From contig CALUUU010000001.1 in the NCBI GenBank assembly GCA_944324035.1, positions 1 through 44,125 on the forward strand: a DNA stretch of 44,125 nucleotides. Direction: 5' to 3'. The notes under the pieces were generated by a model. It saw only the letters and a list, made by a program, of their open reading frames with translations. It was not told the origin of the DNA and did not search any database. This document shows positions 19,701-22,700 of the stretch, piece by piece. The stretch comes from Candidatus Gastranaerophilales bacterium (GTDB lineage Bacteria; Cyanobacteriota; Vampirovibrionia; Gastranaerophilales; Gastranaerophilaceae). Both the position numbers and the translations under genes were made by a program. Each line of letters starts with the position of its first letter. The first letter of the stretch is position 1.

Positions 19701-22700
19701 CAGTAGGAGCCTTTTTTTGCCACCAGCTCCAGAAGTTCGTCTTTGTATGTTTTTGATACGGGTGTATTTTTCTGAACCGCTGTGTTATATTCATTTATTG
19801 CTTCCTGCTGTGAAATTTTACCGTTTTTAAGTTTATCCGCAGCCTCGTGAAGTGCAATGAGGTTTTCTGCACTTAATCTTTCATCAAACTTATATCCGTT
19901 GCCGTAATCAGATAATTTCGGCTCAACACTTTCAAATCCGAGTTCCGACTTACGCAGATGTGTATAATAATCCGTTAAATAACGGTTATATTCATTATAT
20001 ACACCTTCACTCATATTATCTTCCGAAAGAAGTTCTTTTATCGGATTATACAAAGGTTCAAGTTCCTCGTGGTCACCGATTATATTCTTATCTGTTCTCA
20101 AATCATACGGAATATGTTCGCCTTCTGCAAATCTGTCGACTTTATCACCTCTGTATTGCCATTCGATTACTTCGCCGGTTTTTGTTTTGAAGTTTATCTG
20201 TAAAGCGGTATATCCTGACGGCTGGGCTTTTGTTGTCGGTTTATAGCCTTCGGCTTTCATTTTGGCATAGTTAGGGTCAGACTTGTCAAGTTTTACTACA
20301 TAGTTAACATTTACGCCGATACTTGCGCCGTACTGTTTCAATTCAGCAAGCTGTGCTTCCGAAAAATACGGAATGCCGTCATCAGATACATAATTGCTTA
20401 TTCTTGCAGTTTCAAGACCGTCTTTACCTTGTGACTGTGCAAGAAGCATACCTTTTAATTTTTCTAACGCTGGCTGGGATTGAAGTTCTGCTGCTTTCAA
20501 CATTGCCCCGCGTTCATCTCCGGCATCAAGAAGTGCTTTTACTTCCGGATGGTTTTTATAATTATAATCAGTTTCTATTACGGTTCTTGCACCAAAAGCA
20601 TCGCGTACATCGCTTATCGCTTCATCAAGCGTAGCATTCGGATGTTCTTTCATATAATTTGCAATTTTGTCATACAAACTCTGCTCGCTCTTTAATCGGC
20701 CTCTCATATTGCCTATTTCGCCAAGTCCAGCTTCATCAAGATATTTCCTTATTTCGGCTTCTTTACCTTCATAACGGGTTCTGATTTCCTGAACAGCTTC
20801 ATTAACTTCTTTTACCGGTACTTCGTTGCCGTTAACTGCATATGTAATATTTCCCCCTTCCGGTATTACAGCCGGTTCAGGTTCTTGAACCGGTTCCGGC
20901 ACAACAGATTCCTGAATTTCTTTTTCATTTGGATAGTAAATTTCTTCTAATGTTTCATCAGGATATATTTTTTGTAATTGTTCCGCCTCTTTTACTCCTT
21001 TGATTATATTAGGATTTGTTACTTTCATCTTAAACATATATTCAGGCATACCCAGGTCAAGAAGTAATTTTTTAAATTCAGGTGAATATTTGCTCATATC
21101 ACCTTCTGCAGCGACCGCAATAAATTCATCTGCGTTATTGTAAGCATAACTTACATGTAAAGGAGCTATACCGGCTCTTAAAAATTCTTCTCTGTATTTA
21201 CAGTTAGGGAAATCAAGTTTAGTATTTGTTGTTCCTGTTTCCGGATCAAGAACTTGAGATTGTGCTGCAACACCTTCAGGTAATGCACAGCCTTTTTTGG
21301 TATCATTGATATGGGTTATCTCATGTCTGAGAGTATACTGAACCGAACTAAGTGTCATATTATCTAATGATACACTCTGGTTGGTATATGATTCTGCAAA
21401 ACCGCCTGCAACACTTTGTCCATAAGCTCTTTCCGGATTAAAGTAATCCTCTTTTGCTCTCATAAAATCAAGCACCGGCGGCAGCTTCGCCTGCCCGCCG
21501 CTTGCAGTCTGCCATTCGTTAAATTCTTTTTCTATATAGTTAAATACTTCTTTTGCCTCTTTTGGATTTGCGGAAGGAATGACTTTAACACCGTATTTGT
21601 TGTTAATTTCTATACATTTTTGTTTAACTGCCTGTGGTAATTTTACATTTTTCAGGAAGTAGTTTTCATAAAAATGTTCACTTAATTCGCTGTTCGGATG
21701 TTCTTTGCAATAATTAATTAATTGACCGAACTGCATATCATTATTAAAGTCCTCTCTTAATGAATTATATGCCGGCTGTGTGATATATTTTTCAATAAGT
21801 GTCGGTTGTTTTATAAGCTTGTTTGCCAGGTCAGGATTAGATTTTTTTAAATAATTTATAAATTGACGATAATAAGGGCTGTAATTCCCGCCGCCTATAT
21901 TTACATAATCACTGTTTACTGAATGATAAATATCGAGTACATTTTGGATTTCGTTAATTTTATCATTCAATTGACGACCTTCCGGATGTTTTGCAATTAT
22001 TTCATCAAGTTCTTTGTTAACATATTCCAGAATTCGTTCATCTTTTACATCCGCCATAATGGTTTGGATATCAAACAATTGTGTATTCAAGTCAGGTGAA
22101 AGATATTTATTGCCTATTTCAGCAAGTTTTGGATCCGTAATCTTTTTATCTACAGCAAATTCTTTTGTTTTTCTAACCAGCTCAGTAACTGTAATATCCG
22201 GATTTTTGTTATATAATGCATTCATTATATTCAAACCTTTTACGTCAATATTCCCGGCTTCTGCCTTAGCTAAATTGCGATTTAACAAATTAAGCACATC
22301 CGGATGCACCAGCTTGTTATCTTTCATTAAAAAGTCTATGGCTTCCGGGTTTAAAATCGGGAAGTTCTCTGCATTTATAACATAGCTGCCCTGTTCGTCT
22401 TTGATGTTTAATATATCTGCTAACCTGTTATAATATTCAGCATTTTTGCCTTTATAATTATTTGTCATTAAAATAATGTTATCTACATTCAAGACAGGAT
22501 TATTTGTTTTATTTTTAAGTGCAAAAAGAGCCTTAGCAGCTTCTGCCGTGTCAGACTCTGCTAATGTAAATGTTCTGTCAATTATGATTACGTCTATTAA
22601 GTCTTTTCCTGCAGCAGATTTTTCTGTCAGGAACTGTTTTATAAAATCAGCATTCTCCGGGTTCTTTATAAAATCACTTTTTAGAACATCTAATATCCTC

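Follow-up and report, generated by a model that had tools for sequence, protein, structure and literature searches.

Pyrophosphokinases of the RelA/SpoT homologue (RSH) family are now recognised as weapons, represented by the type VI secretion system (T6SS) effectors Tas1/Apk1, the phage toxin Apk2, the tRNA-targeting toxic small alarmone synthetases (toxSAS) and the exported alarmone synthetases (EAS). The subject of this analysis is an RSH synthetase-type module predicted inside a giant protein of Candidatus Gastranaerophilales bacterium, encoded in a stretch of 44,125 nt (the window; contig CALUUU010000001.1 of assembly GCA_944324035.1). The open reading frame (ORF) of the giant protein, taken from the ORF list and its translation, lies on the minus strand at 16760..28252 and encodes 3830 aa (∼431 kDa). 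The module occupies aa 2477-2810 (19823..20824, minus strand), its limits being set by the family hidden Markov model (HMM) and by BLAST edges, and a small minus-strand ORF of 143 aa (16274..16705), referred to below as the partner, starts 54 nt after the stop codon of the giant ORF. The explanation favoured here, with moderate confidence, is that the module is a catalytically competent RSH effector module of a polymorphic-toxin-like protein, with its cognate inhibitor encoded downstream.

About 600 exported alarmone synthetases have been tied to Sec export, type VII secretion systems (T7SS; LXG/WXG), type III secretion systems (T3SS; XopAD), extracellular contractile injection systems (eCIS; DUF4157) and T6SS (PMC12691689), and the EAS and toxic RSH effectors described by Ahmad et al. 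2025 (PMC12691689) include SaEAS, Apk1/Tas1 (T6SS, PAAR/Rhs) and AaEAS (T7SS, LXG). RSH toxin domains carried on delivery domains in large secreted proteins are also known, namely Apk1/Tas1-PAAR/Rhs and Apk2-MuF (PMC12691689, PMC12226406). The Apk2 proteins are polymorphic toxins of the MuF type encoded by temperate phages; they end in an adenosine 3'-pyrophosphokinase domain and have IapK/Aph1 immunity (PMC12226406), and the immunity proteins Tis1 and IapK block RSH toxins by direct binding (PMC12691689, PMC12226406). The preliminary description of the window had presented the giant protein as a new context for a toxic synthetase; given the PAAR, MuF, LXG/WXG, XopAD, DUF4157 and Sec-exported precedents, the context is less new than was supposed. 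The supplementary text files of PMC12691689, as far as they were available, contain neither Melainabacteria nor the motifs of the clade to which the module belongs.

Since single-sequence searches fail (phmmer of the single module sequence gave no match in the PDB), profiles and structure were needed to place the module. A profile of 15 relatives matched 8vx3, the exported small alarmone synthetase SaEAS of Streptomyces albidoflavus, at E 0.0026 with both halves collinear, and gave a weak match to a GTP pyrophosphokinase. RelA_SpoT (PF04607, gathering score 27 bits) is the sole recurrent Pfam family among the close relatives, being found below threshold in 6 of 15, and it is matched at E <= 0.001 by 18 of the 43 most distant relatives listed; P0197 (30.0 bits) and P0219 (30.9 bits) exceed the cut-off. 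The intermediates linking the module to PF04607 match the module profile at E values of about 1e-29 to 1e-41, and the HMM of 206 sequences aligns to Escherichia coli RelA at syn1 (RPKHIYSIWRK) and at syn3/syn4 (NGYQSIHT...EIQIRT). The family HMM matches the giant protein once only, at the position given above.

The structural comparison that the preliminary description had called for points in the same direction. The AlphaFold2 (AF2) model of aa 2440-2801 has a predicted local distance difference test score (pLDDT) of 81.8 and a predicted template modelling score (pTM) of 0.77, and in a Foldseek search of the PDB its top 45 matches are all RSH synthetases (probability 0.75-1.00), led by 8vx3 SaEAS (E 3e-4) and followed by RelP, RelQ, CapRel, Rel, Tas1, RelA and SpoT. 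Identity in the structural alignments to characterised enzymes is 10-16%. Against a viral library, the top matches are phage RelA/SpoT proteins, phage Tas1 and large polyvalent proteins (best E 2.6e-6). With both profile and structure matches present the fold assignment is secure, and aa 2477-2810 almost certainly have the predicted RSH synthetase fold; the proposal to this effect in the preliminary description, read from motifs that lie far beyond chance, is thus borne out, as is the internal position of the module in a very large multi-domain protein. Standard domain models miss the module clade.

This clade is large and was unclassified until now. When 1.84 billion cluster representatives were searched exhaustively with the profile, at least 500 proteins were returned at E <= 1e-3, with 380 at E <= 1e-10, corresponding to at least 500 clusters at 50% identity that occur essentially only in gut Melainabacteria. 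A genome scan with one genome per species recovered 100 relatives of the module, and the locus counts given below refer to the best 80 of these 100, all picked for carrying the module; nearly all of them come from metagenome-assembled genomes of Gastranaerophilales, Melainabacteria or 'Vampirovibrio' obtained from guts. The closest relative locus (L001), whose module is 86-89% identical to that of the window, served as reference for nucleotide comparison and for the ratio of nonsynonymous to synonymous substitution rates (dN/dS).

Five syn motifs follow one another along the module in canonical order (RxKxxxSxxxK, DxxGxR, GY-loop, ExQxR, EHxxY), collinear with those of E. coli RelA and with the single deviation that the syn3 His is replaced by an invariant Gln. 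The preliminary description had listed four of them, GRLKS (aa 2518-2522, 20687-20701), DAFGAR, GYTALQ (aa 2680-2685, 20198-20215) and EWQYR (aa 2697-2701, 20150-20164), and all are found in this order on the minus strand; FAEGEHIPYD is added here as the fifth. The span it flagged, 20100-20710, translates to aa 2515-2718, as it had stated (approximately 2515-2720), and is correctly placed but too short, the conserved unit being the whole of aa 2477-2810.

Residue conservation was counted over 206 family sequences, with identity down to about 25-40%, and all coordinates that follow are on the minus strand. In syn1 (RLKSEQSLYDK, aa 2519-2529, 20666..20698), the ATP-phosphate-binding RxKxxxSxxxK motif that aligns to the RelA sequence quoted above, R2519 and K2521 occur in 206/206 sequences, K2529 in 205 and S2525 in 199. 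In syn2 (DAFGAR, aa 2551-2556, 20585..20602), the DxxGxR motif with the Mg-binding Asp, D2551 occurs in 206/206 and R2556 in 203, and position 2554 is G in 180 and A in 26. The stacking Tyr of the syn3/G-loop (SGYTALQ, aa 2679-2685, 20198..20218) is kept, Y2681 and the substituting Q2685 both being present in 206/206 and G2680 in 202. The catalytic Glu lies in syn4 (EWQYRG, aa 2697-2702, 20147..20164; RelA EIQIRT), where E2697 and Q2699 occur in 206/206 and R2701 in 202, with a family consensus of [FYLI]R. In syn5 (FAEGEHIPYD, aa 2708-2717, 20102..20131), E2712 and H2713 are found in 206/206 and Y2716 and D2717 in 205.

Between DxxGxR and GY lie 123 aa, where E. coli RelA has 37. Extra sequence at this place had been noted before as an insert of about 110 aa; the net excess is nearer 86 aa, and it is divided between two insertions. 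The first (aa ∼2560-2612, 20417..20575; ∼35 aa beyond RelA) folds in the model into three helices (aa 2569-2607, pLDDT >=83) that lie between strands beta2 and beta3, and contains the invariant residues A2583, A2587, E2589 and S2592. It is followed by strand beta3, ISNYV (aa 2618-2622, 20387..20401), the counterpart of RelA 'DDYV', in which N2620 and Y2621 occur in 205/206 sequences and which is modelled as a strand over aa 2613-2622. The second insertion (aa ∼2624-2674, 20231..20383; ∼51 aa beyond RelA) stands directly before the acceptor-binding G-loop, so that the gap from the Y of the DY/NY motif to the G of GY is 58 residues in the module and 7 in RelA; its motif DGIPYxSxxQL is conserved, including G2626 and Q2634. 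Part of this insertion (DGIPYxSxxQLxxLKxYAxxxGI, aa ∼2626-2650, 20300-20375) gave sub-significant profile matches over a beta/alpha unit to dispersin B (E 0.057) and D-psicose 3-epimerase (E 1.4), which are probably due to chance. Beyond the catalytic core the module continues as a family-specific helical C-terminal extension of ∼90 aa (aa 2720-2810, 19823..20095), with helices at aa 2729-2770 (pLDDT >90) and K2722, Y2758, Y2763, R2767, E2770 and L2771 invariant, K2722 being so throughout the 206 sequences.

Selection on the module is strongly purifying: dN/dS is 0.098 for the module and 0.21 and 0.49 for the flanking regions. Low dN/dS together with invariant catalytic residues is the pattern of an active enzyme and not of a relic, and the module is very probably catalytically active. 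As all members of the fold, it would bind ATP-Mg through the RxKxxxSxxxK, DxxGxR and ExQxR motifs, and would pass the beta-gamma pyrophosphate on to the 3'-OH of an acceptor that stacks against Y2681 in the G-loop. The same residues bear on whether the fold could have been kept in an inert form, as a nucleotide-binding or structural pseudoenzyme, or turned to another nucleotidyltransferase-type chemistry on an unrelated substrate. The exchange of the canonical syn3 His for Gln, the two insertions that remodel the acceptor side and the 10-16% identity to characterised enzymes would be compatible with either. Yet pseudoenzymes normally lose the ATP-Mg-binding and catalytic residues, all of which are invariant in the 206 sequences, and the strong fold matches are without exception pyrophosphokinases, none being another Pol-beta-type nucleotidyltransferase, so that inertness or a different chemistry appears very improbable.

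Published signatures distinguish guanosine from adenosine pyrophosphokinases by AVR/RYT in syn2, SxH/GxN in syn3 and IR/YH in syn4 (PMC12226406). The module carries GAR, AxQ and YR at these positions and none of the RYT, GxN and YH elements of the Apk proteins. Judged by these residues, its syn2 is RSH-like, its syn3 is of neither type, with a small residue and an amide nearer to GxN than to SxH, and its syn4 is a hybrid. Because the pocket is remodelled by the 51-aa insertion and by the exchange of the guanine-reading His for Gln, the sequence does not reveal the acceptor; adenine nucleotides, guanine nucleotides and the 3' end of a tRNA are all candidates. It is rather unlikely that the pocket pyrophosphorylates a non-canonical acceptor (neither GDP/GTP nor simply ADP/ATP) in a system that also combines an undescribed delivery route with an immunity protein of new fold. 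An unusual acceptor specificity, if true, would widen the known chemistry of the RSH family; an acceptor that is not unusual would make the module a further, taxonomically new example of the alarmone-synthetase toxins. In one distant member of the family (P0243, 682 aa) a Ppx/GppA phosphatase domain (aa 90-351, E 9.7e-21) is fused to the RSH module, a fusion that hints at nucleotide polyphosphate chemistry, with a penta- or tetraphosphate as the perhaps relevant product.

The partner ORF is preceded by a Shine-Dalgarno-like GAGG read from the sequence (16712..16715, minus strand), 6 nt before its ATG, and a scan of 15900-17000 found no minus-strand terminator, thus none between the stop of the giant ORF and the partner. 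A partner homologue immediately follows the host ORF in 77 of the 80 loci, that is, in 77 of the 78 that are testable, as two end at contig ends; in the remaining one (L079) an ORF of 132 aa with similar layout is found. The pair also recurs in another neighbourhood, where a 944-aa host with a C-terminal module and then the small gene lie among ATP-synthase and glycine-cleavage genes. Like the module, the partner is under strong purifying selection (dN/dS 0.064), and it diverges faster, the most distant pairs sharing 27-35% identity in the partner and 42-47% in the module. In L070 (9972-10871) and L086 (2843-3625), two tandem partner copies follow the host gene.

The preliminary description had reported no recognisable antitoxin next to the module. 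This remains true in the sense that the partner has no Pfam, PADLOC, PDB-sequence or PDB-fold match, the PDB set searched including the Tis1-containing entry 6ox6; what had been missed is the strictly linked ORF itself. Its family comprises 93 unnamed clusters of about 140-149 aa in a large protein database, an REVPEYGDF loop is invariant in it, and the AF2 model (pLDDT 86.3) has an alpha-beta4-alpha-alpha layout, so that the partner is, as modelled, a candidate of a new class and a new fold. Identification as a hydrolase or as a known immunity protein was rejected, since the protein lacks an HD motif and matches nothing in Pfam, in the PDB or by fold, and so was identification as an NrdR ATP-cone, for which the weak match (E 0.43) falls short of significance. 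As a candidate for the conserved partner, the GNAT gene at 15605-16141 was likewise discarded, as it occurs in 15 loci only. The isoelectric points of module and partner were uninformative.

By analogy to Tis1 and IapK, the partner is the natural candidate inhibitor. On this analogy the chances that the 143-aa protein inhibits the module seem about even; if it does, it would most likely bind the module and block it in the producer cell. In a reciprocal metagenome scan for the partner, 8 loci were recovered; among the 5 informative ones, 4 carry the module and 1 lacks it. One partner homologue (L087, 9956-10345) has dynamin-like GTPases, a C39-like peptidase, a radical-SAM enzyme, an outer membrane beta-barrel protein and a phage Gp30.3/NT5C gene as neighbours, and could represent an orphaned immunity gene carried by a phage or another mobile element.

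The proteins that carry the module differ greatly in size, with stop-to-stop ORFs (>=649 aa) from about 650 to more than 4500 aa in the 80 loci, and so does the position of the module within them. In the window it is internal, with 1020 aa of the giant protein after it; in 26 of the 80 hosts it is the extreme C-terminal domain. BLAST coverage by 79 loci shows that similarity to the protein of the window falls sharply at both module edges, and on the N-terminal side the module is preceded by a Pro/Glu-rich disordered linker (aa 2443-2470, 20843..20926, minus strand; sequence NEKEIQESVVPEPVQEPEPAVIPEGGN), with pLDDT < 50 over residues 1-31 of the modelled segment. Domains present in other hosts include a clear ADPrib_exo_Tox (L017) and a PRTase-CE (L003).

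Other parts of the giant protein are less readily assigned. Apart from the RelA_SpoT match below cut-off, Pfam recovers on the whole protein a sub-threshold LysM-like peptidoglycan-binding domain (aa 233-276, 27425-27556, minus strand; 19.7 against a threshold of 20.9 bits), which hints at an extracytoplasmic location. A single hydrophobic segment is present at aa 717-736; across the family, 47 of 58 complete hosts have a hydrophobic segment rich in Gly and Ala, which always precedes the module and never follows it. A weak C3-exoenzyme-like ADP-ribosyltransferase signature is found at aa ∼1240-1392 (24077-24535, minus strand), where R (VQRVD), G-T-S (FIGTSMS) and E-x-E (DETEFLL) align with 1ojq at E 0.16. 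Some 130 aa upstream of the module stands a zincin-like HExxH motif, HEITH (aa 2310-2314, 21311-21325, minus strand); no Pfam family was detected for it, and the region around it (aa ∼2000-2400) is common to 9-24 other loci.

The N-termini of the complete hosts (L002-L078) fall into a few recurrent, unclassified leader types. The leader of the giant protein (aa 1-45, 28118-28252, minus strand) is of the type 'AELEKLSxAELxxLLSG'; further types are '...LPKSEILSIM..G.IS' and 'MGLGDFWLQxNNGKK', the latter with a weak EF-hand match. The first two of these, 'AELEKLSxAELxxLLSG' and '...LPKSEILSIM..G.IS', may resemble the Nif11-type and double-glycine (LSxxELxxIxGG) leader peptides of cyanobacteria. 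Genes for an ABC exporter with C39 peptidase (PCAT) or for a type I secretion system (T1SS) were sought near the locus and none was found.

Comparison with L001 shows the giant gene to be a recombination mosaic, in which 28450-24932 and 24331-23432 have ∼100% nucleotide identity and the rest 73-89%; most of the gene after the module is not alignable. The genes flanking the giant gene have synonymous divergence (dS) of ∼0.8-1.2. Identity of ∼100% over the 5' 3.5 kb, set against a diverged remainder, diverged flanks and a genome background dS of about 1, indicates recent exchange of the 5' part between diverged genomes. No paralogous giant gene without the module was found in the loci examined, and a search for module-less relatives with the N-terminal 1050 aa as query returned a single match.

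Polymorphic toxin systems are characterised by conserved leaders, by the shuffling of effector-type cassettes and by recombination. The module would thus form a single cassette in a polymorphic-toxin-like protein of gut Gastranaerophilales that recombines and exchanges domains and is built from a conserved N-terminal leader, a hydrophobic Gly/Ala-rich segment and variable effector-type domains; an effector or toxin role for the module is reasonably probable from this architecture. Recombining giant proteins with conserved leaders point, in addition, to an uncharacterised export route.

Several observations weigh against this explanation. The module of the window reaches only 20.8 bits (E 4.9e-4) against Pfam RelA_SpoT, under the gathering score. 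Pfam, NCBIfam and inspection of the locus revealed neither a signal peptide nor a known trafficking domain, nor any secretion machinery nearby, and no immunity genes were seen for the ADP-ribosyltransferase-like and zincin-like regions, as would be needed if these were antibacterial toxins. The partner lies 3.1 kb from the module, beyond the end of the whole giant gene, and since all loci were chosen for the module, a partner of the module cannot be separated from a partner of the giant protein, such as a chaperone. The homologue at L087 has no module within 10 kb upstream. Finally, the gene is widespread across the order and not patchy, which fits a physiological role too.

Such a role would be that of a lineage-specific alarmone synthetase whose product, (p)ppGpp or (p)ppApp, serves as an internal signal of the cell, mounted on a giant envelope-associated scaffold, regulated by the small protein and no weapon at all. 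Its presence in about 100 species-level genomes of one order, the strong purifying selection on the module, the location among housekeeping genes, the lack of a secretion apparatus or known delivery domain at the locus or in the giant protein, and the fusion in P0243 to Ppx/GppA, an enzyme of alarmone metabolism, all speak for it. A physiological scaffold is nonetheless hard to reconcile with hosts that vary so greatly in length and domains and are recombination mosaics, or with co-resident toxin-type domains (ADPrib_exo_Tox, PRTase-CE). Moreover, the module frequently stands at the very C-terminus with a small, fast-evolving ORF behind it, as is usual in polymorphic toxins, and the nearest structures and profiles are those of exported or toxic small alarmone synthetases and not of long Rel enzymes. 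A purely physiological synthetase is therefore considered unlikely.

A different function would be intracellular abortive infection of the CapRel or fused toxin-antitoxin type, directed against phages. Here either the C-terminal extension of the module or the small protein would restrain the synthetase until a phage infects, whereupon the freed module would pyrophosphorylate tRNA. Among the fold matches, CapRel (7ztb) has the longest aligned span (333 columns, E 3e-3), the extension is conserved, a conflict-system domain (PRTase-CE) occurs in one relative, and the neighbourhood of the orphan homologue is phage- or defence-like. Against these stand the absence of PADLOC matches for the module, the small protein and the giant protein, the position of the locus outside defence islands, the LysM-like domain and hydrophobic segments, which suggest an envelope or extracellular location, and an architecture of 3830 aa with several effector-type domains and N-terminal leaders that is unlike known defence toxSAS. 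A defence role of this kind seems highly unlikely.

Within the effector explanation, the EAS and toxic RSH effectors are the closest described systems. They have the same synthetase fold, with SaEAS as the best profile and structural match, and a catalytic domain C-terminal to the delivery region, followed in the T6SS and T7SS cases by a small immunity gene. In contrast to them, the giant protein has no detected Sec signal peptide, PAAR/Rhs, LXG/WXG, MuF, DUF4157 or SKWP repeats; the module has ∼86 extra residues in its two insertions and the 90-aa C-terminal extension, is internal in the window, and is accompanied by a partner without known immunity fold. Apk2 follows polymorphic-toxin logic, in which the N-terminal domain defines the family, the RSH toxin domain stands at the C-terminus and the product of the immunity gene downstream occludes the toxin by protein-protein contact; in 26 of 80 relatives the module is likewise C-terminal and directly followed by the small ORF, the candidate immunity gene. 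However, the locus has no MuF domain, is chromosomal and not part of a prophage, shows the GAR/AxQ/YR and not the RYT/GxN/YH signature, and has no second, hydrolase-type (Aph1/SAH) immunity gene.

A likeness of size is found in the giant T3SS effectors of the XopAD/skwp (RipS-type) group, which exceed 2000 aa and carry a C-terminal Rel-like domain as part of the secreted effector. The NCBIfam XopAD model matches aa 2475-2563 weakly with its C-terminal end (E 0.0032, 14.8 against 2000 bits); this match is confined to the Rel-like part, SKWP repeats and T3SS context are absent, and the bacteria are gut Melainabacteria and not plant pathogens. MARTX-type toxins and ART-PolyVal-like proteins likewise combine several enzyme-type cassettes in a very large polypeptide behind a hydrophobic Gly-rich region, and the same fold was found by Foldseek inside phage polyvalent proteins of 1000-1300 aa, one of them 'ART-PolyVal-like'. 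No MARTX repeats or cysteine protease domain were found in the giant protein, T1SS genes are missing and the locus is not of phage or plasmid type; the likeness is one of architecture only.

With the toxSAS (FaRel, FaRel2, PhRel, PhRel2, CapRel) the module shares the fold (CapRel 7ztb, E 3e-3), the G-loop Tyr, the ATP-binding residues and the small same-strand gene that follows. The preliminary description had called the module toxSAS-like, a label that does not extend to membership of the families as defined: toxSAS are by definition small toxins, stand-alone or with fused antitoxin, in two-gene operons, whereas the module lies within a 431-kDa protein, no SAH-type or other known antitoxin class is present at its locus and PADLOC has no match. 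The module clade therefore lies outside the toxSAS toxin-antitoxin families and is not categorically new: it has insertions, a syn3/syn4 signature and a partner family of its own, and RSH toxins in large secreted proteins are known, which makes it a variant within a known kind. It adds a large, insertion-bearing RSH clade from gut-dwelling, uncultured relatives of Cyanobacteria about which very little biology is known, and offers three tractable objects, a compact module of ∼340 aa with clear active-site residues, a 143-aa candidate inhibitor with a new fold and the family of recombining giant proteins with their conserved leaders.

The neighbours of the giant gene are chromosomal and include beta-ketoacyl synthases, a reductase, acyltransferases, an AMP-ligase/ApeI-like set, BioY, GNAT, enolase and an MraY-like transferase. 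A phage or plasmid origin is not supported, the flank at 28300-44125 having no megablast match and the neighbours being of housekeeping and aryl-polyene type. Opposite the partner and the giant ORF, two antisense ORFs on the plus strand (16467-16931, 154 aa, and 17940-18530, 196 aa) are most likely spurious. The region 1588-12871 comprises ketosynthases, a ketoreductase, acyltransferases, an AMP-ligase with an ApeI-like dehydratase domain, an MMPL/RND-like membrane protein and a lipid A-type acyltransferase, and resembles an aryl-polyene or lipid biosynthesis cluster.

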